DNA of 64,000 nucleotides, taken from the NCBI GenBank assembly GCA_030704615.1, contig CM060733.1, positions 4,774,001 through 4,838,000 on the forward strand, read 5' to 3'. The translations under genes and the position numbers were made by a program. Below, in pieces: positions 838 to 64,000 of the stretch (positions are counted from its first letter, which is position 1; every line of letters begins with the position of its first letter). The DNA is from Takakia lepidozioides. Its lineage: Eukaryota; Plantae; Bryophyta. Below the pieces are notes generated by a model that saw nothing but the letters and a program-made list of their open reading frames with translations, ran no database searches and was not told the origin of the DNA.

Positions 838-1075
838 ATATGGGAGACGCACTTGGATACATATAAGGAGATTGCACACTACGCTTAGATGGGCTCGATA
901 TGTGAGAGGCATATTGGAGACGCCCTTGGATACATAGGAAATTGCACTTGGGCTTAGATGACATTGGATACTTGGGCCTCTACATGGGAGATACACTTGG
1001 ATACATAGAAGATTACACGTGGGCTTAGATGGGTCTTGACAACATGGGAGATGCACTTGCAACATTCCAGCCGCA
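838..1075. repeat. Imperfect ~60-70 bp tandem repeat (about 4 units) at the 3' end of the MULE ORF
   Basis: Recurring atgggagaygcacttggatacatar..gattgcac..gcttagatg units. Confidence 0.75.
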
Positions 1076-41200: not shown

Positions 41201-41600
41201 ATGATGAAGTTGTTTCTCCAGCACCTTGTTTGCACGAGCTTCAATCTGCAGGGGTATATAAGCATGGGTTAGAGTCCATGCGTGGGAAGATATTCTCAAA
41301 ATTTCAAGCAAAGAAAGTCCTAAAAACTACCTGGCTCCAGTAGGTGGCTTTGTGCAACCATGTATCGAGAACTTGGTCGTTGCAGGGTTTGATGTGCCCA
41401 GTGTTCTCATCTCTTTTACCCCTAGAGAAGCAGTAGGTATCCTTGACGGTTGGGTCGGAATTCCCAATCTCCAACCATTTCACTTTCTGGTCTGCTTCTT
41501 CCGCTGCAGTTGACAACTGGTGAAGCTTTTCTTGTGTCATCTCCGGTTTGGTGTTATTGTTCCAGTGGATCCTCACCTGGTTAAGGAACTCGAGACCAAA
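38220..41600 (-). pseudogene. DDD transposase of the Sola1-like (DNCxxENKN / GHTHEDID) type, spliced and frameshifted
   Basis: LCIIHDKMDH (~39890), LYLQLDNCVKENKNRWMLAFL (~39500), VGHTHEDIDGFFSYLSKKL (~39400). N-terminal Cys-rich CCxxxCC and CxIAWWTIHGIGRSTY blocks. Introns 40186-40318 and ~41250-41330. Confidence 0.8.
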
Positions 41601-42829
41601 ATCAGGGTCAGTTATTGAGGAGCAGAATGACAGAAGAGAAACCCAGATGAAGTGGAGAGGCTCTCAATATTGAAAGGAGTACAAAGGGAAGAATGAACGT
41701 AAAACAGACAGTCCTGAAGATCAGCGAGCCAGAGCAACTGAGAGGGAAAAAATGGCATGCGTGCACAGGGCAGGCTCGTATACGGATTGTCAAACAGTAC
41801 AAGGTCAACGTGTTCACATTACAATTGTTCGTTTGGAGTGTCATGGATCGACAAATTGTCGCACTGGATATGCTCTTTCGTGTAATCTTGTGGCTATTAT
41901 GTGTCCTCCAGAGCATAAATTCAAGTAGGAGTCTGAAATCCTCCGAACATTAATGGGTCCATAAGTTATTGCGGCCAATGCGAATAACTAACTGATTCGA
42001 GATCTGGAATTTGACATCCAAAGCACCAGAGAAGCAGCAAATCCAATGTTGAATTAATGATACAAGATAAGGAATAGTCGGCGACGAAAGTGGCCGCCTC
42101 TTAAGGCCATTGTGATGAGCCAGTGGCCATCTATGGCAAGGTGACATTAAGTAGCGGCAATGAACGTGGGGCCGTAGATGAGGTGTAGGTAGAGAAAACA
42201 TGAGACCGATCAAATCCTAGATGCGCGTCCCGACACCTCATTATTGAACCTATGAATAATATTTTATCATTGGAAGAAATAAGAGCCTTCGCGGATGAAA
42301 CAGACGTATACTGGATGAGATGACTGCCCTAGTCGATGATTCAACTCCCCTCATGGATGAGCGCCATCACAGGAACCCGCAATAATTCCAGGGTGTTCAC
42401 TTTATGAAGGCGTCAGATTGCCGTGCCGTAACGCTCTGGACAAACTAGTGGAGTCCATTCATTACTGACAATCATGTCACATCATTGATTGTACCTGCAT
42501 AAATTTAGGGGTCGTCAGCGAATCGTTGGGAAACATCCCGCCTTTCATTCATCCATGCATTGAGGCCACAAACCGTAGGATGCGACATAACGCCGACGGT
42601 TGAGATCACAGGTGGTAAGGCATATAAGGAGGAGTGACCGAAAGGAGTCTCCTTTTGCATTCATTTGATACACGCGGAAGCCCTGTTCAATTTTGGACTC
42701 AAGGAAGAGGTGCGAGAGAGAGCGGCTGAGCGAGAGAGGCAGAGATGTGCAGATAGGACATGTTCATGACCGGTTGAGTGTCAGTTTGTCAGCACGGAGG
42801 TGCCACTAGTTGCTGGGGAAAGTGCCGGT

Positions 42830-44310
42830 ATGAGCACTAGCGATACTAGCGGGTATACGAGACGAGGTGTGCGGTTTAGGCCACCTTCACCTCCTGTGTC
42901 TTCTACGGAAGGTTCTAATTCGGATTGTGAATCAGGAGGACTCGCACCGGCGGTGCAAGTTGTTTCCTTGCCATTGTTGTGGGACACAATGGAGGAGATG
43001 TATGGAGCCACCAAGGGGCCACGAAGGTACTCTGGGGCGGTGGGCACCATCGAGTTGGATGACTTTATCCAAGAGTTTGATAGTTGGTGTGACTTGCAGC
43101 AAATGCGCAATCCACAATTGTTTACGCCTTTTTATGGCATGGAAGGGGCTGTTTCAGCACCTTGAGGGACCGCCCATGGATGATTACCATGAGTTTAGGC
43201 GGGGGCACGATGCTGAGATCAAGGAGTGGAGGATGTACTGGTCACCCGACTATGTCTCCATCATTAGAGGCACTAGAGGCACAAGAGCAGCAGCTACACC
43301 GGCAGCTGCACCAGTAGCAGCAGCTTCCACGAGCAGTAGTGGGACTAGTGGTACAGCAACTACGACGTCCACCCAAGCTACTGTTGCACCAGCACCATGT
43401 GGCCATGCCTGCCTTCAACCCTGTTGTGGAGTTCTTCGAAGAGTTGAGAAGGAACTACCAAGGGGTGAGGACAGAGAAGTTGAGGAGCTTGCAAGAGTTC
43501 CAACGGAAGCCTACTGAGAGTTTGAGGGAGGCTTTCACTCGCATAAGGCGCTTGATAAATGTAACCCAAGGGGTTACGGAGGCTCAGGCAGTCCAATTCT
43601 GGTACGGGATATTGGACAAGGAGCTGAGGAGAAGGGTGCGGGATGCAACTCTCTTACAAGCGGTCCAACCCACCTTAGCAAATGTGTTTTTGCTGGCAGA
43701 GTGGATAGAGCTCAACATGGTGGAGGAACGAGTGGACATGGTGGGATTTGCTAAGGAGGCACCACGGGGTAGTGGTGCTCCTAGCCAGCCACGACCTCAA
43801 CGTGCTCAAGGCAACAAAGGGGCTCAGGTGAAGCCCAGGGAAGGGCAGAGAGGACCTCAGATATAGGGGTCTCTCCCTTCATTTGCTAGCCAACAACGGG
43901 CGGATGTGGTGTGCTGGACATGTGGAGGACCCCATGTCAAGAAGGATTGCCCAGAGGGAGGCAATGGTGTGGCACCGGCACAGCCTGCACAGTTGGAGTG
44001 TGGGCATTGTGGCAAGTACGGGCATGGAGAGGCCCAGTGCTATGGTTTGCATCCTGAGTTGTGCCCAGGCCAGTTCCAAGGGAACAATGGTGGCCGGGGG
44101 CGAGGTGGAGCAGCCCAGAGAGGACGAGGTGGCCAGGCACGAGGTGCATGCCAAAGGCAAGCTCAACATGGCCACAGCTCAGGTGGTACCGGCTCCAAGG
44201 CCGGATGGTCCACCCCTGCTCCTGAGGGAGTAGACATAGGAGGCATGGGATTCATGTGCGGGGCAGCACTACCACTACCACTATGGGTGGGGCACCACTA
44301 CCACTGGTGA
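42830..44310 (+). pseudogene. Gag with two zinc knuckles
   Basis: LDDFIQEFDSWCD; FQRKPTESLREAFTRI; CWTCGGPHVKKDC and CGHCGKYGHGEAQC. Several frameshifts. Confidence 0.85.
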
Positions 44311-44986
44311 GGGGTGCCACAACCACTACCACTGTGGGTGGGGCAGCACTACCACTGTGCAAGTGGAGTCAGCAGCGGCAGTGACTCGAGGAGCGGCACG
44401 AATTCTTGAGCCACGGGGTGTAGAGGTGGAGGTGGATCCACAACGTGGGGAGGCAAGCCGTCAGGCCAGGCTTCCTCAGTCATTCACATTGGCGGAGACA
44501 GTGTCGACGCCATCCATGGCACCTAGTTCTCGCCCGATTGTTACCGAGGCGGAGATTACTATGCCATTGGGGAGAGCTACACGGGCAGCACCACTACCTA
44601 GTGTTGCTAAGGCTACGACAGCTAGTGTGCTGCTGGGGGCGGCCACATCTGTGTGTCAGGCTCCATTGTTCTCGGCTACCATGATTGCGACGCCGGGGGC
44701 AAGACTAGCTAAGGTGTTCAGGCTGGCAACGACGCTCTGTGAGAGTGGGGTGGTTACTTCATCTTTTGCGGAGATAGTGGGAGGTGTAGTGCCGGAGGGA
44801 TTCTCGGATGTGAGGGTCAAGACTGCCACGGCGGCGCCATGGCAAGCTGCAGCTGCCAGGTTGATGGAGCTGCCAGCTAGGCCAGCCATTGAGCGCGCCA
44901 TGGTGACACCTGGAGTTGTCATGTTAGACAACCAGGATGACATTTTCTGTTTGAGTGGACCGGCAGGCAAGAGGTACCGGCCACTG

Positions 44987-45300
44987 CGGGTCTTGTTGGA
45001 CTCGGGAGTTCAGCCATGATGCTGGGCAGAGCTGTTATTGCGGGCTTGGGCCTCACGGAGGCGGATATGGAGCCGTGCCCTTTCCAGATACAGACATCTC
45101 TGGGAGGATCAGAGCAGGCTCGGGGCATGACACTGCGTGAGCTGGCTATCAGACTACAGCCGGATCATCCTACAGATGGCTCAGTGATGAGAGCCAAGGC
45201 CATTGTGACAGACGCGGTCTCGTACGATGTCCTTGTTGGTGGGGGCAGTGTTGTACCCCATGGGCTTCACCCTGGATTTTTGGGAGAAGTCAGCTTCCTA
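44987..45300 (+). pseudogene. Aspartic protease domain
   Basis: VLLDSG active site, followed after frameshifts by YDVLVG. Confidence 0.8.
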
Positions 45301-45712
45301 TAGGCCTGGATGGCAGTCAGGGGAGGGCCGGCGTTTGCAGCTCCCTGTGACGTTCATAGGAGGAGTTGCGGTTGCCCAACGAAGCAAGATGCCGACACTG
45401 GCAGCATTCACAGCTGCAGTGAGTTGGCCTGGAGAGTTGCTTGAGGGCAACGCTCATTCAGAGGATGTGTCACCTCCGGGAGAGCAGGATGACATGTATG
45501 GTATGGCGGAGTTGCCTGCCATGGTTGCTCACACTCCATTGTGGGGCTCGAGCAAGGATTTGCAGCGGGTTGCAGATCGACATGTGCAACAAGCCTGGGA
45601 AGAGGCTTTTATACCGTCAGGAAAGGATGACAGTGCGGGGATTGCACCAGGACCACCTCAGTTGTCACCATTGGACACCACACCGATCGTGTGGCAGTGT
45701 CCAAATGAAGGC

Positions 45713-46660
45713 ATTTGCCTTCTGGACTTGTTTGGCGGGATCAGCACCGGATTGGCTGTTGTTCTACATGTAGGTATACGAGTTCGGCATTACTTGTATG
45801 TGGAGAGGGATGAGACTGCACGACGCATCGCACTCCGTCATGTTGCTCAGTTGGTGGAGCACTACCCTGAGTTGTTGCCGGTGTCTGCGGTTCGTGGATA
45901 TCAGCAGGCCTTGCCAGCAGACATTTCTTTGCTGGGGGCGCAAGATTTAGAGCGGGTTGGCTCCATTGATTTGGTAGTGGCAGGTTGGCCCTGCCAAGGG
46001 CATTCATCAGCCGGGCATGGCAATGGATTGCGAGACTCGAGGTCGGGTCTGTTTTGGGAGATGGTGCGGGTTTTGCGCCACTTACAGCTTCATTAAGGTG
46101 TATCTCCAGCATACATCTTGGAGAATGTGCCACTGATGGGCGATTCTCAGGCCAGGATGATGGCCAGTGTGCATCAAGTCTGGTCATGGCTTGGGTCAGC
46201 AGTGTTGCTGGATGCAGCTGCAGTGGGGTCACGGGCTCATCGTCCACGGTTATGGTGGACTAACTTGATGCCACCCGCACTGCTCAAGCGTGCATTTGAT
46301 GGGGTGCAACGGCCAATACACCTCACAGTGGATAGCATTTTGGACACAGGCAGGCAGTATCAACGTGTGAGACACGATGACCGTTCGCCTTTGGCAGTGG
46401 TCAACAAGGTGGGTCAACCACGAGCAGAACTACCTACACTGCTCAGCTCCCCAGGATTGCATGTTTTCCGGGATAGTGGACCTGGCCTCCTGTGGATGCT
46501 CAGTTGCAGCAGTTAGTGGAGCCTAATGTTGACGAGCGAGAGCGGGCTATGGGTTTTTCCACTGGGACCACGGCGGTGCCTTCTCTTTCTGAGGCATCAC
46601 GTCGTCAGGTATTGGGGCAAGCAATGGATCTAAATTGCTTGACCTGGATTATCAGCTTGG
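45713..46660 (+). pseudogene. DNMT3-like C5-cytosine DNA methyltransferase domain inside pol
   Basis: Motif I LDLFGG, II YVERD, III ADIS, IV LVVAGWPCQG, VI YILENV, VIII AHRPRLWWTN, IX/X ERAMGF..T..RRQVLGQAMD. One in-frame TAA (46094) and one frameshift (~46495). Confidence 0.93.
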
Positions 46661-47164
46661 CTATGGCTGAGCAACGTAGAGTGCGGAGTGCACTTCCCTT
46701 GACGGTCTCTCTGCCTACCGAGACGGTACAGGCAGTGAGTGGGGGCGAGCCGGTAAGGACCACGGGGTGTAGACATCCATGGCACATGTGGGAGGTGCTC
46801 GAGGTTCAGAGGGAGTTGGCAGCCAAGGCGGCTGTGATGGCTGAGGTTAGGGATTCTTCTCGGGTTGAGGAGGTCCTCAAGGATGAGATGATGGGGCAGG
46901 ATGAGGCCTTGTCATTGACTGAGCAGGCAGGGAGTACTGCTCAAGAGGTTGCGGCATAGCAACCACGAGACGCGTCTCCTACCTCTAAGTCTGCTGGACT
47001 TAAGGTTGCAGTTACGGAGGATAATTGGGAGCCTGACATTGGACCCATTGTCGCTGGAGGAGAGAGATGACGTATACGGCGGTTCTTGAGGGCTTACAGA
47101 GAATTGCTTTGCCTTCAGTTTGAAGGATTTGGGAGCACTGAAGGGTTAGGAGATTTGTATTGAG

Positions 47165-48400
47165 TTGGCTACGGACACGCCAATCTTTCGGAGACCCTAT
47201 AGATACAGTGACATGGAGAGGTCTTTGATTCAGATGAGGACTCAAGATCTCTGGGAGGCTGGTTTGGTGGAGCTCTCTGATGGAGAGTATGCTTCAACCA
47301 CGGTGATGCCAGCCAAGAAGGATGTCTATGGCAATTGGACGGAGAGACGTATGTGCGGTGACTACCGGCCTGTAAATCGTCAGACCAAGTCCGATAAGTA
47401 TGCCATGCCCACACCTGAGGAGATCTTTGATGCCATTGGGTATGCCAAGGTCTTTAGCACTTTGGACTTGCGGTCCGGATATCACCAGTTGCCGATCAAG
47501 GAGGCGGACAAGCAGAAGACGGCATTCTGGGGGATCAATGAGCACGGGAAGGATTGCATATATCAGTGGCGATTCTTACCATTCGGGCTTAAGAACGCTC
47601 ATGCAGAGTTCCAAAGAGTTATGGATAAGATTCTAGCAGGGGTAGACTTTTCTCGGTGCTACATAGATGACATCATTATCTTTAGTGCTACGGTGGAGGA
47701 GCACGAGAGACATCTTCAGGTAGTGTTTGAGCGTTTGAGAGCGCACAGATTGAAATTACATCCAGGGAAGTGCAAGTTCTTCCACAACCAGATTGAGTAT
47801 CTAGGCCACATGATATATCCTGGAGGATTGGGGGTGCAGCAGACTAAGGTAGAGGCCATCGCACAGATTCCACGTCCCACGGATGTAAGCCGAGTTCGAG
47901 CTTTCATGGGGTTGGCAAACTACTATAGATGGTTTGTCAAGGGATTTAATGCTATTGCAAAAGCTCTAACCAAGCTGACCAAGGTAGACCAGGAGTGGTA
48001 GCGGGAAGATGAGCAAGAGCGAGCTTTTCAGGAGCTCAAGGCGAGGTTGACCTCGGCGCCGATCTTGAGACGACCTATCAGGGGGCGTCTCTTTCAGGTG
48101 CATACAGATTGGAGCATGTTGGGACTTGGAGTGGTGCTCACATAGGTGGATGATGAGGGAAGAGAGTTCGTAATGGCTTATGCTAGCCACTCAAACAATG
48201 CTGCAGAGTCTAAGTATAGCTCATATGAGGGGGAGTGCTTAGCTGCAGTGTGGGCCGTGGCACACTTTAGGTGCTATCTATACGGCAATCTCTTCACCCT
48301 TGTCACGAATCACCAGCCACTCAAGTGGTTGATGGAGTCAGACAAGCTTACGGGGAAGCTTGCATGGTGGGCTCTGATACTCCAGGAGTATGACTTTTAG
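47165..48400 (+). pseudogene. Reverse transcriptase and RNase H
   Basis: RMCGDYRPVN, FSTLDLRSGYHQ, LPFGLKNA, CYIDDIII, YLGH; RNase H HTDWS..GLGVVL, YSSYEGECLAAVWAV, TNHQPL. In-frame TAG codons. Confidence 0.95.
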
Positions 48401-48829
48401 GTTGTGCATCGACCGGGTTTGGTCAATAGGGATGAGGATGGATTGAGTCGCAATCCATGCACGAGCCAGCAGGATGACACTGGAGCTCGGTGGCATGGTG
48501 AGACGGACGAGGAGATGGTGTCGGGATGGCATGCATCTGCCTTTTTGTGTATCTTGGCATCGGGAGGTCAGGTTGGATCTACAACAGGGATGACTGTAGA
48601 TGGAGTGTCTGAGGACCCTGAGGCTAGTGATGAGTCAGGTGGTGCCAGAGATATACATGAGGATTCGGTTGTGTTGGACTACCTCCGCACTGGAGACACG
48701 GCAGCTAGTGTGACTGCCAAGGAGAGGGATTGGATCCTACAACGAGCCAAGAGGTTCAAGTGGGAGGAGACACACTTGCTTCGAGTGTGGGAGGATGGTC
48801 GGGTGAGGATTGTGCCTCACCCAACACAG

Positions 48830-50080
48830 CGTGCATGGTTAGTGCGGCATGCCCATGAGGAGTTGGGGCATTTTGGAGTGCGACGCACTCATAGTTTACT
48901 GCAGGGGCAGTATTGGTGGCGTGGTATGCACACAGAGGTGCAACAGTTCGTGGCTAGGTGCATGGTGTATGACAGGGTGCATGCTTCATTCAACGCCCCT
49001 ACACCACAGTTGCATCCATTACCCATCATGGGATTGGGCAACAGGTGGAGTCTTGACTTCGCAGGGCCGTTGCCAGTGCCGATGCGCCACCACAAATATG
49101 TGTTGGTGATGGTGGAGCACTTCTCCAAGTGGATTGAGTTGGTTCCATTGTCTGACAAGGCTACTGAGAGGGCTTGCGTATACATTCCTGGATCGTGTGC
49201 TTAGCCGATTCGGTGCTCCAGTTGAGGTACTCACGGACCAAATGAGAGAGTTCTTGGGGGAGTTTCAGGCTTTGTGTGATAAAGCCTTGATAGACCACCG
49301 TACCACTTTTTGGGATCATCCTGAGGCCGATGGCTTGGCAGAGAGAGTGGTTCAGACAGTGAAGAGGGGTTTGCGCAAGTATGGCTTGCAAAAGGGACAC
49401 CTAGGAGATTGGGATCTTCAGGTACTTTGGTTAGCCATGGGCTACAGGTTTAGCAAGCAGACATCACTTGCCTCCTTCTCACCATATTTCCTTCTCTTTG
49501 GTCGAGAGCCGGATTTGCCTGCATCTATTTGCAGGGAGGCTGCAGTAGTCCTCAACCTTGATGATCCGGATGTGTGGACACAAGCATGTGCCCAACGGGC
49601 AGAGTTGTTCAAGAGAATCATGCCTATGGCTTTCGAGAATCTTGCTATTGCCCAACATCGAGACACATTGAGGTATGCCACTATACGTGGAGGGGGATAT
49701 CGGCCAGGTGTTCGGCGTTTCCACCCTGGGGACTATGTGTATCTGCAGCAGACAGCGCCTACGACCTTGGATGTCACAGCAGGACGTGTGATTCTAAGGG
49801 TCAAGGAGGTGTTGCCTTCAGGAGTGTTGATTCAAGAGGGTCGAGATGGCATGGTATGGAAGGACCATGTGCGTAATTGTGCGCCATGTCACCTCCCACA
49901 TGTGGATGGGAGGATAGATCCCAACCTTGCAGTGGTACCTGCAAGATTGCGTTGCATGCTATATGGGCATGGTCGTGGTGCCGCCACTATGTTGGTGTGT
50001 GATCGATGCTCAAGAGGTTGGCACATTGGATGCTTGACACCACCTCTTGAGAGGGTTCCTGATGGAGATTGGTCAAGATC
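48830..50080 (+). pseudogene. Integrase (HHCC + DDE) followed by a PHD finger
   Basis: HEELGHFG..CMV(Y/C); SLDFAG, LTDQ, ERVVQTVK; PHD CML(Y)..MLVCDRCSRGWHIGCLTPPLERVPDGDW. Confidence 0.92.
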
Positions 50081-50267
50081 TCATACTCAAGTTCACAGGT
50101 TGCAAGATGACGACTAACGATGGGGCAACTCTTGTACCCGGCCTCTTGATCTATTGAGTTTGAGTGTAATAGGGACAGAGGTGGAGGACGTAGTGAGGCT
50201 ATGGCCACTATCACATCTTGTGGCTACCTGGACCTAGAGGGACCTAAGCGCCAGCTAGGGGGGCGAT

Positions 50268-50480
50268 TGTGATGGACTAGTGGCTGCACTAGTGGTGACT
50301 AGTGGCAGCCTAGTGGTGGACTAGTGGCTGCACTAACGGTAGCTGGTGGCAGCCTAGTAGTTGGACTAGTGGCTGCACTAGTGGTGGACTAGTGGTTGCA
50401 CTAGTGGCAGGACTAGCGGTGCACTAGTGGTGGATTAGTGATAGACTAGTGTTTGGTGTACACATGTGTTGTGTGGTTTT
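50268..50480 (+). repeat. Start of putative 3' LTR, made of CTAGTGG short repeats
   Basis: Begins TGTGAT immediately after the purine tract; about 15 ctagtgg(c/t) units. Confidence 0.65.
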
Positions 50481-50689
50481 GGACAGCGATGTAGTTGTGT
50501 AGCGATAAGTATGTGCACGACACCATGATCTGCATTACGTGCCTTTCGAAGTAGGGATTCCTAGTGATTTCGTAAGCCGTAGAGAAACTTCGCGCGATCG
50601 CTCGTGTTTATTTCAGTGATAGTATTGCGGAACATGGTTTAGTTAGGACTTGGAGCAAGGTCAGTAAGCACTTTCATCAAGGGAATGAT

Positions 50690-52215
50690 CTGAACGAAGC
50701 ACGAGCGATCGCGCGTGCTTCATTCAGTAAAAGTCGTCACCTACAGGAGCACTAACCAACAGTAGGTAATACCCAACTGGGTCGAAGAAATCATTCATCT
50801 GTAGGACAATAAACTCATTGTTTTCAATTTTAAGTATTATGCAATTATTGAACCTTGCACAATCGCGCTAATTTGACTTCATAGTTTACTGCATTAGATG
50901 AGAAATTGAAGATGTGATGCGAAAGAATGCCCTGAAGAAGCACGCGCGATCACGCGTGCTTCATTTGGTTGGTACTTGTATTCTATCGACCAACAACAAC
51001 ACCATTGATACCCAGATGATTAGATGATACATATGAGGATATGTCTGAGTGCATACTCAAAACTGTAAAGTGTTTCGGAAGACATTAGTTCACATTATAC
51101 AATGTCAACTAAAATCTTCCGTCGCACTTTATCTGTCTTGCCATGTACACAGAATATGATAATTCATGTATGTCGTGAAATGGTCACTCTTATGTATGAC
51201 GGGTGGAGGAGTTCAGTGTGGACACAATAGTACACAATAGTATCCAAATATCAATCCAAAAGTCCAGGGCAGTTTGAAATATTACTTGTCGTCAACATCG
51301 CTTGGGTTGTTCATCGATTATGTCGACCACTGTTTCTGATTAGACGGTGAAGATGTGATGTCCATGAATGGTAAAAAGAGCGCGCGCGATCGCGCGTGTT
51401 TCATTTAGTGCAAGTCGTCACGTACAGAAGCCCTATCGAACAGTGGCTAATACCAAACTGTACGTGGTCGAAGAAATCATTCATTAGTAGGACAATAAAC
51501 TCAGTGTTTTCAATTGAAAGGACTCCGTAGCAAACTGCATTTGTTGAGAAAATTGAAGATCTGATGCCCAAGAATGCCCTGAAGAAGCACGCGCGATCGC
51601 GCGTGCTTCATTTGGTTGGTACTTGTATTCTATCGACCACAACAACACCATTGATACCCAGATGATTAGATGACACATATGAGGATATGTCTGAGTGCAT
51701 ACTCAAAACTGTAAAGTGTTTCTGAAGACATTAGTTCCCATTTTACAATGTCAACTAAAATCTTCCGTCGCACTTTATCTGTCTTGCCATGCACACAGAG
51801 TATGATAATTCCTATATGTGGTGGCTTTGTCATTCTTATATATGATGGGCGGAGGTGTTCTGTATAGACACAATAGTATACTATAGTATCCAAATATCAA
51901 TCCAAAAGTCCAGGGCAGTTTGACATAATACTTGTCGTCAACATCGTTTAGGTTGTTCATCGATTAGTCGAGCACTCTTTCAAATTGGACAGTGAAGATG
52001 TGATGTCCAAGAATGGTATAAAGGTGCACGCGGAATCGCGCGTGCTTCATTCAGTGCAAGTCGTCACCTCCAGGAAAACTAACGAACAGTAGTTAATATC
52101 AAACTGTAAGTGGTCGAAGAAATCATTCATTAGTACGACAGTAAACTCATAGTTTGCAATTTTAAGGATTATGCAATTATTGAACCTTGCGCAATAGCGC
52201 GAATTTGACTTCTTC
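50690..52215. repeat. ~650 bp tandem repeat (~2.3 units), each unit with two CGCGCGATCGCGCG palindromes
   Basis: 50900-51545 aligns with 51546-52190; palindromes at 50700, 50941, 51381, 51588, 52027. Confidence 0.88.
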
Positions 52216-52978
52216 GTTTCAGTCTTATTCTAAATATAAATAAAAACGACTTCCAGTTAGATAATCCTCAATGTTCTCAATGTACTTTAATAGTCCTTCC
52301 GCTAGACTTCTCGCAGTGGGATGAAATTAGTTCATTTGTGTGGTGTCCTCAACTCAATAACGCGCGATCGCGCGTGGTTCTGATGTTGCTACCGCTCAGA
52401 AGAATTTTCTTGGGATAATAGATGTCAGGATACTCTTATATGACTGAAAGAACAAAGTCATGAATATATGGATTCTGTTTGCCACGCTTAGCAACATCGT
52501 TGTTGCTTATAATCGGATTTTATGTTATTGGAGGGAAAATTGTGGACCAAATACGCGTGATCGCGCGTTCTTCGAGTGTATCTTTTTGTACATTCTGTAT
52601 CTGAGCACGAGTTCTTGATGATTCTTCCAGTGTGGTGGATTCGTGTTCGATGAAGGAGGAGAAGGAGATGGAACATACCAGACACAAGACAACGCTTTCA
52701 CCCTCCTCACAAGGTGAATGCGGAGCTGCGGTTATTATGACGGGACCTTCCGAAGGAGTTCATGTTATATCATCTCCAGTATCTACAATTACATCCACAG
52801 AGGAGTCTGACACCTACTCCCTGAATCAAACGATCAGGACAGTTATTCACCAATAGGATATTTTTGCGACGTTCCTCCCGGGTCAGCAGCTTTAAGTTTT
52901 TTTCTAGAACAATACTGTGGAGGGTCTTCCGAAGATCCTGTAGCTGAAGTATCGGTGGAATCAAATGATTTCTGCGCT

Positions 52979-53263
52979 ATGTACCCTGCGTATATGCCAG
53001 ATACCCAAGCTTATACACCCGGATCCCCGGAGTATACTCCCATATCACCAGAGTACACTCCCTCAACCCCAGAGTACACTCCGGCATCCCCAAAGTATAC
53101 ACCCTCATCGCCAGGGTATACTCCGGGATCCCCAGAACACTCACCAATAGAATACTTTAGCCACCTAAGACCCGGGTCGGCTGCATTGGCCTCATTTTTG
53201 GCACAGTACACACCTACGTCAACTGTATGTTCCGACCATTCGGAATCATCAGAAATAGATTGA
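52979..53263 (+). CDS. Small protein with RNA Pol II CTD-like heptad repeats (YTPxSPE)
   Basis: YMPDTQA-YTPGSPE-YTPISPE-YTPSTPE-YTPASPK-YTPSSPG-YTPGSPE-HSP; codons vary synonymously between repeats. Confidence 0.65.
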   Translation: MYPAYMPDTQAYTPGSPEYTPISPEYTPSTPEYTPASPKYTPSSPGYTPGSPEHSPIEYFSHLRPGSAALASFLAQYTPTSTVCSDHSESSEID

Positions 53264-53775
53264 TTCTTCACGGGCTCTCAGGAGTGTACTTAAACCAGTT
53301 CAGAATTTCAACGTGGTTCCATCGAATACCCACAATAATCAGTAGGATCACCTTCTGGGGGTGTCCTGAATCACCATGATATAGTCCTTCATCTCAATTT
53401 TAGGCAGACATTTATGATTGTACATTAAACGTCAACGATGTCTCCGTTTTCATTCTTCACTGTTGAATAATAAATTATTCTTCACGATTTTTGAAACCAA
53501 TTTATGAACTTCAGCTTTTGAGATTTCCAGTTTAATTGTGACATTGATTTAGTCCATTCCATTTATTCCATATTGCAGTCACAGTTGAATGTCCCCCTAT
53601 TCCAGCTTAATTGTATGTTAATTTCTTTCAATTCCATATCTTCCCAGTGGGATTCCCATATGTATATTGGCCTGACATCCGTAACATTATGATTTGTCTC
53701 AATCTTCGGCCTTTACTCTCAATCCTGAAATAATGCCATGAGATATCTAATCCAGATAACATAATGTTGTGATCC

Positions 53776-56700
53776 ATGTTCAGTCGTCAATCAAACATAC
53801 CGGCGGATTGCCTGGTTGGTGTATGCAAGGAGATATGTAGGGAGTTCATCTCACCAAAATCGCCAAACTTCAGCATAGACCACGTAGCTTTGTATACTCT
53901 TAACCAGGCGATATCCGAGTGGGGAATAAATCCTGTGGGTGTACCTCCTGACCACCAACTGAAGTTTTCCTGCAAGATTGGAGCGGAGGTGAAGGAGCTT
54001 AATTATGGCTACGTTAAAGATGTTGAGATGGAGTCCGACGTGGAGAATCCAATGATGGTGGTTTTCATATTGGAGGATGGTAGAGCGAAGAAGACGTTTG
54101 GTTTTTCTCTGGAATCTCGTCGCGTTCGCAAGGCAATAATGAAACCAGCTATAAAGATGGGATTCACTTTCCCTGAAAGTGGTGCAGCCCTGACTGCTCA
54201 GGGATTTGTACGAGCTTGGAGCGTTTTCCAAGATGTACTCCATGCGCAGGGAAACATCAACAGAAAACAACGAGACGATGAGGCAGCGAAGGGGGCAAAG
54301 GGTAAAAGGAAACGGAAGTCCACGGCGGGATCCTCTCAGACTGACAATGAAGAGGAGCAGCCAGCCGGCAAAAAGAAAAAGAAAGAAGAGCTCGATATTG
54401 TATTTATGAATGACAACAAGAAGCCAAAGCCTGGCGAAATTTTTGACAAGAAGAAATGCAAGGCGATGAATCAAAGTCTGCAGAATGACTACAAAGACAT
54501 GTTCTCTTTTGGGTTCAACCACATAATATCAATTGACATCTCAAGGATGGAACTTGTTCCAAGAAGCATGGTGTATCGTCCGCTGAATATTAATCACAAA
54601 GATGAAGTCAAAGCCTGTCTGTACCAGTTGCGGGTTCTAGATACGAAACATCTCGTCTATCTGGCGCCGAGGAACAAACAGGTGCCAACCCAGGTGTCTG
54701 CGATGAAACCAAGGCATCAGAAGGATATTAACAATTCAAAATTCTTCGTCATTGGAGGCCAGCACACAATTATGGCTGCAAAGGTATAGTACATCAACGT
54801 TTACCTCGCGCGATCGTGCGTTCTTATATATTCTTCTCTGCTTCTATGATAATCATCTTTCGGATATTTCTTTGCGTTTCCTCATTATCCTTCTCGCGCG
54901 ATCGCGCGTGCTTCTACTAGATGATTATATCAGATGCATCGACGACTTGTTTCATAGAAATGCATAGCATGATAAGCAAGCACGCGTGATCGCGCGTGCT
55001 CCTTTATAGTTCAATTCCATGCCGATGTAACATTTTCCAAATCAGGAACTCGTGGAGGAGATTACTGACCGGGAGCAAAGGGACCACTACGCCGAATGGC
55101 CATCAATTATCCTCTTGTCAGATAGGAATAATCAATTGCTAAAGATTTCCAAGCTCCTGAACGACCCAAATAAAGCCCAAAAATTTGACACAACATTCCC
55201 GGAGAAAGTTGCTCACGCCAGGATGTACTATGAGTTGAGGGGGAAGCCCAGGAAATTCAACGATAACGTTTCCAAATCTGAAACCGTTCAGTGGAAGGTA
55301 ATTATTCGGACTTCCTTTATTGTTTAATGTTTTGTTGTTCATTCACTAGAACTGTGTGTCCCTGTTGTGTGTTGGCCTGACATGTTGTTCCTGTTGACCA
55401 GGAATTTTTGCAAGCCTAACAACTTATATTGGAGATGCTTAGCGTTAAGGAGGCCATGACCTTGGTCATTTGCGATGACGATGTTTGGGAGAAGTGGCAA
55501 AAGGTTTTCAGAGAGTGGGAGAAGGGGAACCTCTTGGACATTAACGGAAAGAAGCATAAGGGTGTACAATCGCAGCTAACAAAACCTGCAGTCTGCAAAC
55601 TCCAGGGATTGAACTGCCTTCAAATGAAGAAGGTTGCGGAAAAGATTTGGACTTGAAGATCTGCGTTCGTGGTCCTTACAAAGGAAAAGACCCCAAGATT
55701 CTATGCCTGTCCGATTACATCGATCGAATAAAGGACGGGCGGTTTATTATCGATGATGTTATGGTGGTATTGGGATATGATGCCAGGAGCAAGCAGCATC
55801 CAGAGCCGTACACAAAAGCAGAATGGCTCGAAGTGAAGAAAAGGTACAAGTTCAACAAGTCGGAGTTCAAGACATTCCGATTGAAACTGGGGGCCAAATA
55901 CATGAAAAGCAAAGTGAACATGAACATGAAGACCGAGAAAGTGAGTGACACTTTCATCAAATACTTGCTTTCATGCAAGAAAAGGGTTGAAGACATGGAG
56001 AAGGAAATGGGCAACCTCAAGGATACATTCAAGTCACATTACCAGTGCATTGGAGGGAAGCAAAGGTTCACGGATGCCAAAACACAGTTGAAAATTGTGA
56101 GAAAGAGGGATTTCGATAACATCGCAATGGTGTTCGTCAACACAGTCTGTGACGATGACTCGACTGTTTTCATGCAAAGAAATTACAAGAATATTTCGAT
56201 AACAGCAGCTGAGCCCCAATGTATTTGTTTTCTTCTCGACGCAGAGGTCCTTTTCCAATCTCGTCTCGTACATAAGGTTTGGCGAGGGGCGGGACAGGTA
56301 TATTCTGCTTCAGGGGTTGTATCTTCCTGGAGAGTTCGACAATCCTTACATGAGCCGGCCAAAGTCATTTTCAATGCCTCTCATGTGCCTTGATTACGTA
56401 TTTCCTGCTATAGCTGCCCAGATTGAGAACCACGAGGAGCACCTGCAGGGAGTGCTGATGTTCAGCCCCATTAAACCAGTGATTAAGGCTCCGGACACTG
56501 AGCTCACGGAACACGAGAAAGACTGTGCCGCTTATGAACACGAATTGCGGGCAGAGTCGAGCGACTACATTGCGTCCTTGTTCTGTGGTGAAGGGATGGC
56601 GGCTGTGAACGTTTTTGGAGGCGTAATGTTAACATCGGCTCTCCACGTAAGCATTTGATTTCCATTTCCATTCTATTTCTATTTCCATTTCCATTTCCGA

Positions 56701-57494
56701 AATAAATCTTTGGAACCTCGCGCGATCACGCGTTCATCCTGTTTACTCCATGGTTGGCATCTTTTGCAGGCTAGGAACGTCCATGTCCTCGATATAAATC
56801 ACAACCTGAAAAAAAAATTATGCGCGAATGAGGTTGCACTAACTACACACTCCTCCACACAGATAAAGAGGACGAAACCGAGGTTGGTGATGACACATTG
56901 GGAGGGCAGGAGACCCACAGGCACAATGGCGAAGGAAATGACGACGACGATGACGATGACGATGACGATGATGATGACAATGAAGACAACGGACAAAGAG
57001 TTCTGGAGATAGAGCAAAACCAGGAAGAAGGTGACGGAAACGAAACATTGGAGAAAAATGATGGACATGAGGGAGGTGAGGATGGCAAGGGCGACTATCA
57101 ACACGATGATGCTATCAACAATTTCTTGGAAGAGGAGACAGAAAAAATTGAGCAAGGCATAAATCCACCAGCTGAACAAGCAGGGAGGGTAGTACCAAAA
57201 GAAAGCCACCATCCACAGGCCCAGACAAATACCCGTGAAGGAGACAAACCCGAGACAATTGTGCTGTCTTCCTCCACTGAAGAAGTGGGGGGAGACAATG
57301 TAAAGGATAACGCTGATTCTAGAGACTTCTTCAATAAGAAGATTTCAGAATTAGACTCAGGGGTGGGATTCAGTCCTGTGGAGGGGGATATGCCATTACG
57401 GATGTCACCATATCAAAGATTAAGCCAACGAGTTACGTCGTTGATGGTCAGGCTTCTAGGGCATTGGTCGGCGATCAAAACTCTGTTGAAGTGA
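53776..57494 (+). pseudogene. Multi-exon gene: basic NLS-like region, ParB/Srx-like domain, degenerate amino-methyltransferase-like region, acidic tail
   Basis: Exons ~53776-54783, 55046-55297, 55402-56646, 56770-~57447. IDISRMEL..YRPLN..H..V.....FFVIGGQHTIMAAK (ParB/Srx-like); LFCGEGMAAVNVFGG..LHARNVHVLDI (SAM-binding-like); poly-D tract at ~56938-56985. Stops and frameshifts present. Confidence 0.55.
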
Positions 57495-57990
57495 GTATTG
57501 CATATTATGAGCTGTACTGACACTTGTAAAGCCCAATTTATAACAAACTTGATATAACATCAGAATCTTTTACCAATGGAACTATTAATCTATTGCACAT
57601 GAATCGAAATTTATACGGCAGTCCAATCATCCGCATTTTCTGTAGATCCGTGAGTCCAATACGAAGAAAGTGACACATACCAGAACAAACGACACACAAC
57701 AACATACAATGAAGAAACAATACGACTTCAGAGTGAGGATATCGTCGCCCAAGGTGGCAGCTTCAGAAACCGCGGGCGATCGCGCGAGGTTACTTATCGG
57801 AGGGGTCGACAAAAACATGCCGGATGGCAAAAAACCCATTGACGGTGGAATTGGCGGCGAAACCTCATCCGACTTGGAGCAAGTGCCGCCAATGCTCGTA
57901 TTTCATTCTCCGCCTTCTGTTTTCCTTTCTGCATTCCATTGCGAAACAATTCCAATGAATTAATAATTATTTCCTAATGGGCAGGATGAT

Positions 57991-58812
57991 ATGATCTATC
58001 CACCACACGACTATTCCCAAGCTGTCCAACCCGCGGATTTCTTTGCTCTTCCAATGGGTCCAAATGGATGTCAGCCCGGATATTATGTCCTGGTTCTGGA
58101 TGTCGGGTTCCTATATGAGGTCTACCTCCAGAATGGGCCAAAAACCCCTCCCGCAACTCAGCCTTGTATCTCTGCTGGAAGATTTAAGTTAGCAATGCGA
58201 CATGAGGTGGGAGACTTCCTCAAATGGGTCGTCAAGAAGTTTTGGGTCATCTTATGGAACACTGGCAAAGAAAAGACTGTCGTGGATTTCAAATCAGCCT
58301 TGTTCGGGAGGAACGCCCACAAGGTCATGCATTACAGTTCCGACCAATGTGTGGAACATAGACTTACTTTCAACACATATTGGCCTACGCTACCTAAGGC
58401 CCCAATCTACTTCAAACGACTTTACGATTTGTTCGTAGACCCCGACTCTAAAGCCTACAGGTCTAACACCCTGCTTATCGACGTCGTTGGGAACATGTAC
58501 AAGTCTTTCATCAATCCTCTGAGCCTGGTCATCTTCCTACCTAAATACGAAGCACTTGTAGATCCATACAAAGATGATTTTTTGATGGGTCATCTGAAGC
58601 CCCACCTGGAGAAGTTGAAGCATTCAAAAATGGACACTTGGGCCTTCAATGAGCAGAACCCTTTTGGAATACCTAAGGATATCTACTTTCAGGATGCTAG
58701 AGTGAAATTCATTAATCGCTAGGACTTTCCATGGCCTAAGAACAAGGAGGAATGGGATGCACATCAAAAGTACCTAGAGGCCCTGGAAGTGGAACATGGA
58801 ATATTAAAGTGA
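57991..58812 (+). CDS. FCP1/SCP (NIF)-like HAD phosphatase domain 1
   Basis: VLVLDVGFL, MRHEVGDFLKW..F.VILWNT, YFKRL, NTLLID..KSFINP. In-frame TAG at 58720, after which the frame stays open to 58812. Confidence 0.75.
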
Positions 58813-58918
58813 CTAGTTTTGAGAATGTATTGGGATTCTGAGGTCATTGAGGTCCTTATCTGTTCATGAGATTCTTCTTTTGTTGATTTACTTAATTGTC
58901 TTTATCACTCATTCACAG

Positions 58919-59637
58919 ATCCGACAGCCTAGATCTCCACCTTTGAGGGGACCTCGCTTGATAATTTTTGACGTTAATGGAGTGCTATGCAAAATAACGA
59001 AGCGCCAGAGCCCAGGACCTGCTCCATGTTTTTCGGAATCTGATTACAGCATTCCTGCTATTGTTGGGTATCGGCAAATCTTTAGACGGAAGATGTACCG
59101 GGAAGTTTGGCAAGAGTTACACAAGCACTTCGTTTTAGGTATCTGGAGCTGCATGGTGATTAAAAACAAACTGTCGTTCTGGATTTGCTCCTACGTGGTC
59201 TTCCACGACCAGCGTTCATCATGTCGCAGGAGGATTGTATCATTTGCCCAAGCAATCTGCACCCAAATTACCGAACGAGACAAGATCAACCTCCTGTGTT
59301 CTTGAAACCACTCCTTAAAGTATGGCAGAGTTCTGAAGGTTTTTACAATCAGAGTAACACTCTGTTGATTGATGATACGGCTTTGAAGTGTTTGCTGAAC
59401 CCTCCTGAATCTTGTCTTCTTCTCAAGTCTTTTGAGAACATCGATGTCGACGATTTCTTCTTTCTCAAACTTAGAGATTTCTTGCTTAGCTTCTTGAAAT
59501 TTGAGAACGTCTCAAGCTTCTTGAAAGCAACGAGAATAGGATTTCCACCTTTGAAAGTTAACGATCCACAGTTCAAGCCTCTTCTTGACTATATTGACAA
59601 TTCACAATATTGTGATTTCCGAGTAAATGATAAGTAA
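58919..59637 (+). pseudogene. FCP1/SCP (NIF)-like HAD phosphatase domain 2
   Basis: LIIFDVNGVL, FVLGIWSC, FIMSQEDC, FLKPLLKVW, NTLLIDDTALKCLLNP. One frameshift near 59165. Confidence 0.85.
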
Positions 59638-61056
59638 ATATTCGCGTCCTACTGTGGATACAGTTTACTATTTAAAATTGATCGTGAAGACCATGGAATT
59701 TCAGTATTTTTCTGATATTCTTTCGCTTTGCATAGAAATTGTTATATGGCCAAACCATATGTAATGGTCAATGGATTCGTTGCTGCTTTATGTCCGTCGA
59801 TTTCTTTTCGGAACCACGCGTGGTCACGCGTGGTTCCAACTCAACTTTGTTGACATATATTTCATTTGCAGGTATGCCCATATCAATATATTCTCCATGC
59901 CACAAATGCATCTCAAATTGGCGAAACAATATCGTCTGGTATTGTTGACGATGTAGAAATGATCAGGCCAGAAGCTTTCCAAGGACCTGACAACTTGTTG
60001 TCTACTCAGGCATCCATTGCTGTTATGGAGAGTGTTTTGAGGCTCAAAATGTCAAAAGGTGAATCCACAGTTAGCAGGGTCGATGATTTAACTGGGGTTG
60101 GCTGCGTAGTGGAGAACGACTCTTAATATCTTGGGGAATCCTCCTCGGAGCCGTCCTTCTCCCAACACTTTCCACCAGACGCCGTCACGGGGGATCTACA
60201 TGAGTCTACCGAACAATTGGTTGCAACTATCGCTCAACTGCCTCCTCATCATGTCGTAATTCCAAGCGGGTCACCGGATCACGAGGGCTGGACACCTCAG
60301 CTGCTGAGAAGTCACGTGATTTATTTCTATTTCATCCATGCGTTGTATTGTTACCGTGTTTATGTTCATCCTCTGATTTTCTCTCTTTACTCCAGGCCAG
60401 AAAAGCTGCAACGTATAACCTTCCTGTGAAGCGGCAACTTCTGTGGGGTTATATTCTAAGGTAATCCATTTTTTTCTGTTTGAATTCGGTTTAGGATGTG
60501 CAGAAAGAAAGAAACCGAATTCCATTGCCAACCGTCAGCGAGAAGGTTATTGAACTCACTCATTCGCCGACTGAGGTCAGCACACCGACAAGACCGGCAA
60601 ATATTTCTGCACATCCCCAACCCCCCAAAATTCCGGATGGTCCTGTGTCAAGGAAACGTCGTAGATCACAGCAGTCAGCGGCGGTCGTGTCCGACGATGA
60701 AAAAACAGCATCTGACGTTCTGTTATCCCTTCAACATTCACCTGCCTCCAGTGGTAACCCGCCTCAGAATCGGAGGGTAAATCTAGCAAAGGTAATAAGT
60801 ATCTCCTTCACTTGGTTCTCTGTCTTATTGGTTATGGGTTTTTAGTAATCATTACATATATTATTTACATTGTCGACACAACTTTCACAAAGTAACCTCG
60901 CGCGATCGCGTGTGGTTGAAGGAAACACAGAGACTCCCGATTGTGATTTTTTGTTTAAGTCTCAATTGGATGTCGTAATGCTGAAAATATTACCTTAGCA
61001 AAATATTCCATTTGAAAATCAGGGTATAGAAACAAGGTAAACCACAAAACGCAAGT

Positions 61057-61779
61057 ATGTCGTGGCAACACAAACACATGTTGCTGGTACTGAGTGTCAA
61101 TGGACTTCTTTGCTACAGGCCACCTCCTACCGGAGGTGAGTTGTTTAAACAGAGGTTTCACTTAAGGAAAGTAACAATTTGGGTGCTCACAAGACCATTT
61201 GTAGTTCCAAGACGTGGAGTGCTGGAGTTTCTTCGACTTGCATTGACTCATTTTCATGTAGTGATTTGGTCTTGCTCTGAGAGGGATACTGTATTCAAGA
61301 TGTTGGAGTGTTTCGTTCCTCCGAAAATTATGAAACAATTTCGTTTCATATGGTCTGCCGAGCATTGCACAGATACAGCTGGGCATATTAAGCCTGGGAT
61401 GAAATATCTTATTAAAGATATTAAGAGTATTCTCGTAAAATTTAGTGGGAAATAATTTGCTAGGCAGGGGCAAATTCTACTGGTCGACGATGACCCTTCC
61501 AAGGCACTCCGAAACCCAGTGAATATTGGAGTCTTCCCCATCACACTCAAGGAATCAAGCAATTTGGAGGATTTTGTTGACCTCACCAAAGCTTTGTGGC
61601 CTTTTCTCTCTGGCTTGATTGGAGCCCAGTCTGTTGTTGATTACGTCGGCAAGAACTCATGCAAATCTTCCTGCCCTCTGATAGGTCGAAATCACGTCTA
61701 CTGGTCCTGGTTTGGAAGGTTTATTGATGCTTCTGTTTGGCACCCCCCTAAAAAAGATCCCAATTATCTGGGTACGTAG
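61057..61779 (+). pseudogene. FCP1/SCP (NIF)-like HAD phosphatase domain 3 (lacks the nucleophile Asp)
   Basis: LLVLSVNGLL, RRGVLEFL..FHVVIWSCS, FIWSAEHC, IKDI, ILLVDDDPSKALRNP. In-frame TAA at 61453. Confidence 0.85.
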
Positions 61780-63450
61780 TTTATCATTGCTCTATTTTGT
61801 GTGTAGTCCATCAGTTTTACTTCAACTTGCATTTGTATTTTTTCGTTTGTTGACTTCACATGACTTTTGTGAGATCAATGATATTTCAATGATCTTTGTC
61901 TTTTCTTTAACAATTCCCTTCTGTGTTGCCTCCACACAGTTATATTCCAGTGTCCACAATCAAATTCGACAGGAGAAGAAAGAGGAACGGCAGCGTAAGG
62001 CTGAGCGGCGGGACCGCGAGGTTTTACATTTGTCAAGGTCATCAAGTACAGCTACCGGTGAGGTGTCTGGTCATATCTTACATCAATCTCCCATTGTATC
62101 CATCTCCTCGGGTGCACAGAATTCCGCCATCAGTGGTAACCGACGGCGATCTCGAACATATGCGTTGAGTGTGAGCCGTTTGGGAAGCAACTCTGTGTTA
62201 ATGATGAATTAAACTATGGCCGGCCTGTTCATTACACACATACGTTATTTACCTCCGTCAACGTTATGCCAGATCCTTTCGGCTGTAATGTTAGTCATCG
62301 AAGTTTGAGAGAAATCACGCGTGATCGCGCGTGGTTCCTTCATATATCCTCTTGTGGAGCTATCATGGATCAGTAGTGCCATCAGATGTATCAAAACAAG
62401 TTGACTTCATTGTCAGTTTAAGCAATAACAGATCGGGCTGGAGGCTGGAGGTTGGAGGAGAAGAAATTTTCCGATGTTTTTCATATTACGATGGGGAACA
62501 ACTGACACGATCATCGTCTATGACTGAATTCGAGTTCCTATCTCGTAATTCAAGCTCCCACGATGGTCGTCTCATTTGTTCCTGAGCGGATTGTGAAGCT
62601 CTGCTAAAATCTCTCTTCAAATGGATTGAAGTAATTTTGGCGGCTTCGAAATTCCTTCCCTGACCAACTGATGGCCACCTTGTGGTTGATTGAAATCTGG
62701 ATGCACTCGGCTCGTTGTGGTTCTCACTGGTGGTAGAGGCAGAGATCTGTCGCGTGATCACTCGTGGTTCGAAAAGCGGACTTCAGCATCGTCCTGGTTC
62801 TCTAGCTGACTGCCAAAGTGTTATATTACCTCAACAGTGCAACATGTGATTGGTCAGAGTGATGTTTTTCTATGCTCACGAATTCTACAACGAAAATGTT
62901 GTCATTTGAAGATGTGATGATACTGCAGGCATAGGGAGTTACTTCATGTCAGTTACAGCGAGGGAACTCAAGGTATTCAGATAATCCGTCCCGGAATATT
63001 CCACAGCATCATCCTGGATGATTCATTGATGTGTTTTAGAACACGCACTCAAATCATCGAGGCTGATGGTGTCACTTGTTCCCTGGCGGATTGTTCAAGT
63101 ATCTTATAATCCTAGTCTTTAAGTTGTTTGAAGTCATTCTCCCTGCTTGCATAATCCGATCTCCAACAATTGACAACATCCTCGTGGTGTTTTATTTGGT
63201 TCCTATATCCTTCGTTTGGAGATCCATTATTCTTTTGAGGAACACCAACGATTAACATCGCGCGATCACGCGTGCTTTTCTAAGAGCTGACTTGTTCTGA
63301 TGTCCATCATTGCACACCAAAATGGTGTTACGAGGAGGCAAAATGTCAGCAATTGAACGTCAATCTCCAGTGACATCCTCGTCGTTTTCATGTGGACTGG
63401 ACGCCAAAGGAGGAACACCGTCGCTAACAATCTGTGCAAACAATCTCAAC

Positions 63451-63911
63451 AATCATATGTACTCCAAGGTGCTTGATACTGCGTATGTTCATGTAGCTGA
63501 TTTCTATAGGAGTTTTTTTGCTATTCCCATTCCAACAACATCAGGTCCACTGAGACTGCCATATTCCGAAATCGGAATCAGACACCACTTACATGAAACC
63601 ATCAGCTAAGAATGAAATCTCCAGTTCATTCAATCACAGCCCGGAGAAATATCTCAAGCTGCTGGGCAACTACTTGTGGGCCAGGGTGTTTCTCTGGAGT
63701 CGCATACAATGAATCGAAGATCTAGTTGTGAGCTGACATGCAGGTGATGGTTTTATATTGGTCAATGATGGTGGGCCGTGGCTGATACGGGAGTATGAAT
63801 ATGACAGTCTCTGGGGACCTGATACTGTTCGCATGGGAATAGCAAAACGACTACTATACAATTCAGCTACAGGAACAGCAATAGCATCAAACACCTAGCA
63901 GTAAATATGAT
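63451..63911. repeat. Ungapped imperfect inverted repeat (~135 bp arms, ~190 bp spacer)
   Basis: 63468-63567 aligns without gaps to the reverse complement of 63797-63894 at roughly 80% identity; the similarity extends on both sides. Confidence 0.8.
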
Positions 63912-64000
63912 TTTTGACATTGCTTGTGACAGCTCCAATCAGTTAGTTGGTGGTTAGTCAGTTGGAGATTATTTAGTTGGTGATCACTTTACGAGTGCTT

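Follow-up and report, generated by a model that had tools for sequence, protein, structure and literature searches.

A tandem heptad array resembling the RNA polymerase II CTD in an accessory gene of a likely giant transposon of Takakia lepidozioides

We describe six consecutive heptads resembling the C-terminal repeats (CTD) found in RNA polymerase II (Pol II), encoded by an accessory gene of a repeated element in the moss Takakia lepidozioides. The window, that is, the whole stretch of DNA analysed, is 64,000 nucleotides long. The array is selected at the protein level, and its gene is dead in the window copy. Sister copies keep the reading frame, which makes docking of host CTD-reading enzymes likely. 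We give a probability of about 0.5 to the full proposal of a transposon-borne, CTD-like docking array that would recruit host CTD kinases and readers and keep the element transcribed.

The heptad array

The array lies at 53012-53137 on the forward strand. It was delimited by a heptad scan, by Tandem Repeats Finder (a 21-bp array with 74% matches) and by a Pfam match below the cut-off (PF05001, 16.3 bits vs 20.3; E 0.012). Its units, consecutive and in frame, read in order YTPGSPE, YTPISPE, YTPSTPE, YTPASPK, YTPSSPG and YTPGSPE. Y1, T2, P3 and P6 are each present in 6/6 units. Position 5 is S in 5/6 and T in the remaining one, position 7 is E in 4/6, and position 4 varies freely. The CTD consensus residues S2, T4 and S7 are each found in 0/6 units. 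The fission-yeast CTD requires Y1, P3, S5 and P6 but can do without S2, T4 and S7, and S7E serves there as a mimic of Ser7-phosphate (PMC4574753); the array has this essential set at 6/6, 6/6, 5/6 (plus one T) and 6/6. The earlier note on this DNA, made from the letters alone, had described the same six heptads with Y1, P3 and P6 kept, S5 in five, S2 replaced by T and position 7 often E, and this description is confirmed. A six-frame scan of the 64-kb window revealed no second tandem heptad array, and 30 simulated 64-kb sequences of matched dinucleotide make-up contained no tandem heptad pair.

Differences between units fall mainly at third codon positions (pairwise counts of 21, 16 and 43 at positions 1, 2 and 3), and synonymous codon differences (39) outnumber non-synonymous ones (27). 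Codons for Y1, T2, P3 and P6 have invariant first two bases and variable third bases, every change being silent. We re-placed the 19 observed substitutions at random among the array units, and 0 of 200,000 such neutral simulations kept Y1, T2, P3, [ST]5 and P6 (product estimate 1e-6); T2 entered this test after the data had been seen, and the other positions come from the CTD consensus. The silent pattern at kept codons and the simulations together show that the array is selected as protein, as the earlier note had suggested from synonymous variation. They also make it barely credible that a non-coding 21-bp minisatellite translates as heptads by chance. That explanation would account for the regular 21-bp repeat and for the third base of codon 4, which is invariant across units and so indicates common DNA ancestry, but not for the concentration of differences at third positions or for the preserved motif.

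No RPB1 body domain was found among 36 reading frames of the window scanned against Pfam (a part of its frames), in agreement with the claim that no such body is attached.

The accessory gene and its sister copies

The array belongs to a Ser/Pro/Tyr/Glu-rich accessory gene at 52650-53293 (+), defined by frame mapping and sister-copy comparison and broken in the window. The stop-to-stop frame of the array spans 52811-53263 (150 codons), and it is approached in a different phase by a Ser-rich frame that opens with the ATG at 52650. Two lesions separate the window copy from an open gene, namely a frameshift of one base near 52818 and a stop codon at 53261. Once joined, the frame counts 204 codons up to 53260, and 214 if read on to the following stop at 53291. 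The feature had previously been placed from 52979 onwards and taken for a short free peptide; the longer, twice-broken frame from 52650 replaces both the start and the interpretation, and what remains is a transposon accessory gene that is dead in this copy.

A decayed seventh unit precedes the array at 52991-53011 (+), as seen in the sister-copy difference tables. A 26-codon motif, SPIxYF...PGSAAL..FL.QY, brackets the array at 52844-52921 and 53138-53215 (both +); base comparison gives 48 of 78 identical bases between its two copies, and the second begins with Tyr in the sister copies compared. Heptad-like remnants follow at 53273-53356 (+), where Ser-Pro is partly restored in the sister-copy tables. 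These remnants (GSQEC, GSIEY, VGSPS) continue beyond two stops and had been traced from about 53275 to 53400; they exist, but reach only to about 53356.

Sister copies are public DNA contigs compared with the window over 52560-53360 as difference tables, from runs X1, X2 and X5, of which X1 and X2 are one sample. The best runs share 0.35-0.38 of the words of 52.4-62.2 kb, a level of the same-organism family and not necessarily of the same individual. Run X1 has 123 records over the heptad gene. The comparison used 40 of the 140 sister-copy rows; 37 of them were annotated, the exceptions being a duplicate position and two rows that lie upstream of the ATG.

One extra base at 52818 joins the frame from ATG 52650 in 613 of 683 units of depth in X1 and in 77 of 77 in X2; the X1 contig that makes up the rest carries different indels, net +11, and does not join the frame. 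The stop at 53261 is absent from 1371/1989 of the depth in X1 (69%), 232/258 in X2 (90%) and 2.47/2.47 in X5. Frame and heptad register in other copies had been named in advance as the test of the idea, and both are kept. Heptad-like units flank the array in sister copies: the unit at 52991-53011 shows Thr2 together with an acidic position 7, and is a complete unit at one contig end, and the residue directly after the array is Tyr. Three of the 40 of 140 rows fall in the array, namely one I>V change at position 4, one silent change and a minor E>K, and none among these rows alters Y1, T2, P3, position 5 or P6. Where annotated differences hold more than 65% of X1 depth, 19/23 are non-synonymous, which is what decay of the window copy after insertion would produce. 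Damage is seen in other copies too: frameshifts occur at 53004, 53025 and 53030, and a stop at 52856 arises in a minor variant. Two probable RNA runs, X6 and X7, have no cover over the heptad gene and bear on its expression in neither direction.

The element

A CpG palindrome, CGCGYGATCRCGCG, occurs in 18 copies with at most two mismatches between 50591 and 63272, as found by pattern search; 200 shuffles gave a mean of 0.035 and a maximum of 1. Seventeen of the 18 lie outside mapped coding frames, which take up 46% of this accessory arm. The eight upstream of the heptad gene all fall in one repeat block and are not independent. That block (50583-52570) consists of imperfect tandem repeats of 440-650 bp, and the acceptor-like site found at 52630 hints at an intron in the 5' UTR of the heptad gene. 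CpG observed/expected is 0.82 in the arm vs 0.41 in the host gene region, a difference that may only reflect a younger element. The arm at 50-64 kb has no Rfam match.

Head-to-head with the accessory genes lies a broken, multi-exon DUF7869 transposase-like gene (38228-41663, -; PF25273, E 6e-20 and 6e-16), which includes one degenerate copy of the palindrome at 40212. From the shared palindrome and the layout we infer that transposase and accessory arm form one element, likely a giant cut-and-paste DNA transposon. Its right end is probably beyond the window; no terminal inverted repeats were matched between 35.2-38.0 kb and 50.5-64 kb. The accessory arm, the side covered by this comparison, is repeated: runs X1 and X4 contribute numerous divergent contigs across 50.7-64 kb. 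Summed X1 depth over 50.7-63.3 kb is about 1,700-5,700, vs 58-80 for single contigs, which suggests tens of element copies, depth being no copy number.

Between transposase and arm sits a Gypsy retrotransposon (42770-50522, +; Pfam, with loose contig ends at 50522) that is separate from our finding. No 5' LTR matching its 3' end was found. It encodes a C5 DNA methyltransferase domain (PF00145, E 4e-10) located between gag and RT, and its integrase is followed by a PHD finger. It is very high-copy, and its depth in X1 is about 300x that of the accessory arm. A second copy of the family, internally deleted, inverted and 92-95% alike, lies at 32256-34151 (-). AT-rich repeats with telomere-like GGGTTTAGGG words at 36980-37700, past the 3' end of the DUF7869 gene, are possibly the element's subterminal region. 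At the other side, 63437-63926 contains a 149-bp inverted repeat pair, 77% complementary, with a rise in X1 depth, perhaps a separate miniature element.

The ParB-like gene

Downstream of the heptad gene, ORF and splice mapping outlined a broken multi-exon gene of about 1,000 codons at 53776-57494 (+). It contains a GGQH motif resembling that of ParB (54751-54765, +) and has an acidic tail. It has no Pfam match. Its nearest look-alikes are DUF3723 and ParB_N clusters (scores 0.81-0.85, lead level), and a search that covered longer proteins only returned no homologue of the ParB-like exon. All mapped junctions are phase 0; for the intron at 56647-56769, a contig from a run that is probably RNA connects 56646 with 56770 at GT-AG. 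A possible methyltransferase motif seen by eye near 56560-56790 is not claimed, as it has no support from profile searches: no N4C/N6A methyltransferase domain matched in Pfam or NCBIfam, and the look-alikes of the frameshifted piece are unrelated families.

The heptad frame might be an exon of this gene. A candidate phase-0 splice donor at 53225-53230 (+) reads GTATGT in the window and mostly GTAAGT in sister copies (751/980 of the depth in X1, 259/259 in X2 and 6/6 in X5; about 0.04 expected by chance in phase). A phase-0 acceptor ending at 53907 would join it to the ParB-like frame, and 53401-53700 is T-rich like the other introns of the gene. Two observations argue against the splice: an ATG of its own is available to the ParB-like frame at 53776, with 44 codons open (about 0.08 by chance), and heptad-like residues run on in frame past the donor. 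An X6 contig covers 53378-53883 and exits the window at a GT; its loose end is absent from the window, and the contig speaks neither for nor against the splice. On balance we lean against the exon.

NIF-fold domains

Three NIF-fold (PF03031) domains follow on the forward strand, starting 4.8, 5.8 and 7.9 kb from the array. The first (57967-58722, E 0.006) reads L-D-V-G at motif I (58090-58107). The second (58919-59637, E 5e-4) is frameshifted, reads F-D-V-N-G (58961-58981) and has further matches to TIGR02245 (E 1e-5) and, weakly, to UBLCP1 (E 0.02). The third (61057-61779, E 4e-10 with its one internal stop read as X) has L-S-V-N-G (61084-61104). Only this third domain passes the cut-off of 21.8 bits, with 39.9; the other two score 16.8 and 20.3. 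A single-sequence fold of the first domain had a mean pLDDT of 32.6. Searches returned no homologues of the first domain, and no matches of the third among PDB sequences or viral contigs. By eye, the three domains (57967-62212, +) have splice-like boundaries and missing start codons, and they may be exons of one gene.

The earlier note had reported three CTD-phosphatase-like domains about 5 kb away. The fold matches are there, at the distances given, but the catalytic signature is not. In the DxDxT family, which includes Scp1 and Fcp1, the first Asp is the nucleophile and the second the general acid-base (PMC9062747). The window copies have D-V-G, D-V-N and S-V-N in place of DxDxT, so that all three lack the second Asp and one also lacks the nucleophile; motif I was placed by eye and by the Pfam start in a decayed copy. 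As they stand the domains are unlikely to be working CTD phosphatases, and the lack of DxDxT in this copy makes an active enzyme-substrate pair with the array doubtful. Binding without catalysis seems more likely, with the caveat that the window copy is decayed.

Searches for relatives

The heptad frame had no homologues in a search among proteins of length 77-245. HMMER with the heptad protein against 1.84 billion representatives gave 463 matches at E<=0.001. Among the 150 matches listed, the similarity is the array itself, and with the array masked the best E was 0.26. Many of the 84 domain-scanned matches are RPB1 or RPB2, and others have TPR, MATH, BTB, chromo, zinc-finger or MFS domains, or none. 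A YxPx[S/T]P motif alone therefore does not prove CTD function, since proteins of many unrelated kinds bear such arrays. Of the 150 matches listed, 90 have S2 together with a non-acidic position 7. Four among those listed are dominated by T2 with an acidic position 7; all four are grass hypothetical proteins, and they have no homology to the heptad protein beyond the array.

Five grass hypothetical proteins in our set (P0019, P0027, P0032, P0088 and P0141) consist largely of YTPxSP[DE] repeats and may be a stand-alone CTD-like family. Near the end, 3/5 have a basic motif of RRRHHPY or RHHPY type, which we take to resemble a PY-type nuclear localisation signal.

No relative of the heptad protein was confirmed in metagenome or viral contigs, and a DNA pattern of two and a half heptads had 0 viral matches. 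The palindrome CGCGYGATCRCGCG matched three GC-rich viral contigs and a transposase piece one weak viral locus, none with related genes, and an endogenous-virus origin consequently has no support. Transposase relatives were found at eight metagenome loci (594 pattern matches in 15 of 64 parts searched). These eight loci, 5/8 of them under 9 kb, showed no tandem heptads, NIF matches or palindrome. A DUF7869 relative that includes the C-terminal part is present at L005 and L006 (9884-11075), on a 37% GC contig with plant-like genes nearby; no accessory arm lies within 10 kb on either side.

Function of the array

A docking array is the simplest mechanism because the array keeps exactly the Y1, P3, S5 and P6 set. 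The product of intact copies would be a likely floppy protein, about 214 residues long or more and containing at least seven units. A CDKD/CDK7-type kinase would mark Ser5 in Ser5-Pro6, and Glu7 would supply a fixed negative charge like that of Ser7-phosphate. The marked array could then bind readers of Tyr1 and phospho-Ser5 such as capping enzyme. By sitting on the palindromes, the ParB-like protein would hold the array on the element, either as a partner or with the array as its spliced N-terminal exon. The NIF domains, without DxDxT, would bind or shield phospho-heptads rather than dephosphorylate them; their presence within the same element as the array counts in favour of docking. Plant CDKD kinases do phosphorylate Ser5 (PMC8774115), and capping enzyme contacts mainly Ser5-phosphate and Tyr1, with Pro6 directing Ser5 phosphorylation (PMC4066402).

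Several points count against docking. T2 is fixed at a position that yeast can do without (PMC4574753). In the fission-yeast capping complex the Ser7 hydroxyl hydrogen-bonds an Asp (PMC4066402), which a Glu presumably could not do. The units are few (6-7), some sister copies are damaged, and our searches returned no array-independent relative among the matches listed.

A more elaborate version strikes us as unlikely. The heptad exon would be spliced (53225 to 53907) onto the palindrome-binding ParB-like protein and form a miniature CTD signalling module, a portable Pol II tail placed on the element's own promoters and introns. CTD kinases, together with capping or processing factors, would be drawn to it, and the dead NIF domains would shield phospho-heptads from host phosphatases. 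If this were true, the transposon would escape silencing by counterfeiting the CTD code.

A serious rival, which we consider possible but favour less than docking, is that the array is a generic region of proline-directed phosphorylation. It would regulate the accessory protein itself (under CDK, MAPK, GSK3 or CK1, through turnover or condensates), with a convergent likeness to the CTD and no reader engaged. The fixed T2 and the complete lack of S7 and T4 fit this well, and the rival stays serious because such arrays arise repeatedly: they are found on many unrelated proteins, and the four grass proteins share the T2 and acidic-7 spelling with no homology outside it. VANC proteins of Arabidopsis transposons also have tandem peptide motifs, in their variable regions (PMC5735166). 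Against it, a cluster of S/T-P sites needs neither a Tyr at each seventh residue nor an exact period of seven, and the element has three domains of a fold that handles CTD phosphoserine. If the generic explanation holds, the array amounts to another low-complexity repeat in a transposon protein, of modest interest.

We hold it decidedly unlikely that the array acts in trans, either as a decoy that soaks up host CTD kinases and phosphatases or as the substrate of active NIF phosphatases of the element, shifting host Pol II phosphorylation broadly. The close company of array and NIF domains, within 8 kb, and the first Asp of motif I kept by the second domain would suit such a role. It is opposed by the missing DxDxT residues, known from the window copy with 40 of about 3,000 arm difference rows seen, and seven repeats on a low-copy gene would make a weak sink relative to the Pol II pool. 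Transposons capture host fragments, and a 3' fragment of host RPB1 decaying neutrally in the element would explain both the weak PF05001 match and the neutral decay of the window copy, with its mostly non-synonymous majority differences. This is very improbable, given that Thr2 (ACN codons) is present in all six units with no Thr4 or Ser7, that S2 predominates in RPB1-type matches among those listed, that a duplicated non-RPB1 motif brackets the array, and that the frame is joined in most of the sister-copy depth. An ancient RPB1 capture later reshaped by selection is possible.

Comparison with known systems

Like the RPB1 CTD (YSPTSPS, PF05001), the array has a period of seven and keeps Y1, P3, S5 and P6. 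It differs in T2, the variable position 4, the mostly Glu position 7, the lack of a polymerase body, the sub-cut-off PF05001 score, the duplicated non-RPB1 motif in its flanks and its location on a repeated element. It has 6-7 units, and real CTDs have 26-52 (PMC8774115). The NIF domains share the PF03031 fold with the FCP/SCP phosphatases Scp1, Fcp1 and UBLCP1, whose DxDxT they lack (PMC9062747).

Giant transposons that combine a ParB-like gene with palindromes are already published from algae. Sola1-1_Ec32 of Ectocarpus, a 21.5-kb giant DNA transposon in which nested insertions are common, has an accessory gene that runs opposite to the transposase, encodes about 1,100 residues and bears a ParB-like domain (PMC12477816). 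The layout here matches, with the ParB call at lead level. Profile searches detected no counterpart here of its methyltransferase domain, and its main text and five supplement files mention no CTD-like or phosphatase cargo (PMC12477816). In Plavaka elements of Bostrychia, the ParB-like accessory gene PAG3 lies beside inverted-repeat arrays and is proposed to bind and modify its own element (bioRxiv 10.1101/2025.02.11.637652). Those elements differ in their EnSpm/Plavaka transposase and in their effectors, a 2OG oxygenase, SET and an adenine methylase; the main text mentions no CTD, heptad or phosphatase, and its supplements may list further accessory genes (bioRxiv 10.1101/2025.02.11.637652).

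VANDAL elements of Arabidopsis resemble the Takakia element in amassing a short motif in introns, intergenic DNA and terminal non-coding DNA, partly via tandem repeats (PMC5735166). They differ in a Mutator-type transposase and non-palindromic motifs of 8-9 bases, vs DUF7869 and a palindrome here. Binding and demethylation by VANC have been demonstrated (PMC5735166), whereas the corresponding functions here are putative.

No report of a transposon-borne CTD mimic or of CTD-like cargo was found in the literature searched, which included few subscription journals, and DUF7869 is not named in it; the nearest papers listed deal mostly with influenza polymerase, which binds the real CTD. A 2026 CTD review (PMC13451535) has no mention of a mimic, a transposon or CTD-like sequences. 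The known effectors of algal ParB-like giant transposons act on DNA or histones. If our proposal is right, the CTD-like array and its NIF partners would be a transposon's reach into the Pol II phosphorylation code, a different way out of silencing. The element, having kept Y1, P3, S5 and P6, would also be a natural experiment on which letters of the CTD are needed for mimicry.

Elsewhere in the window

At 802-4166 (-) lies a Mutator-like transposase that is broken and includes a SWIM finger (E 0.005); GC-rich tandem repeats occupy 2257-2584. An exon of a host HECT E3 ligase gene is found at 10998-11483 (+; E 4e-22), and CpG is strongly depleted around it (o/e 0.25-0.41 over 10-14 kb). CpG depletion, spliced genes and TTTAGGG-like repeats mark the host as probably a non-seed land plant. 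At 34496-35257 (+) there is an open frame of 253 codons with no match in Pfam or NCBIfam.
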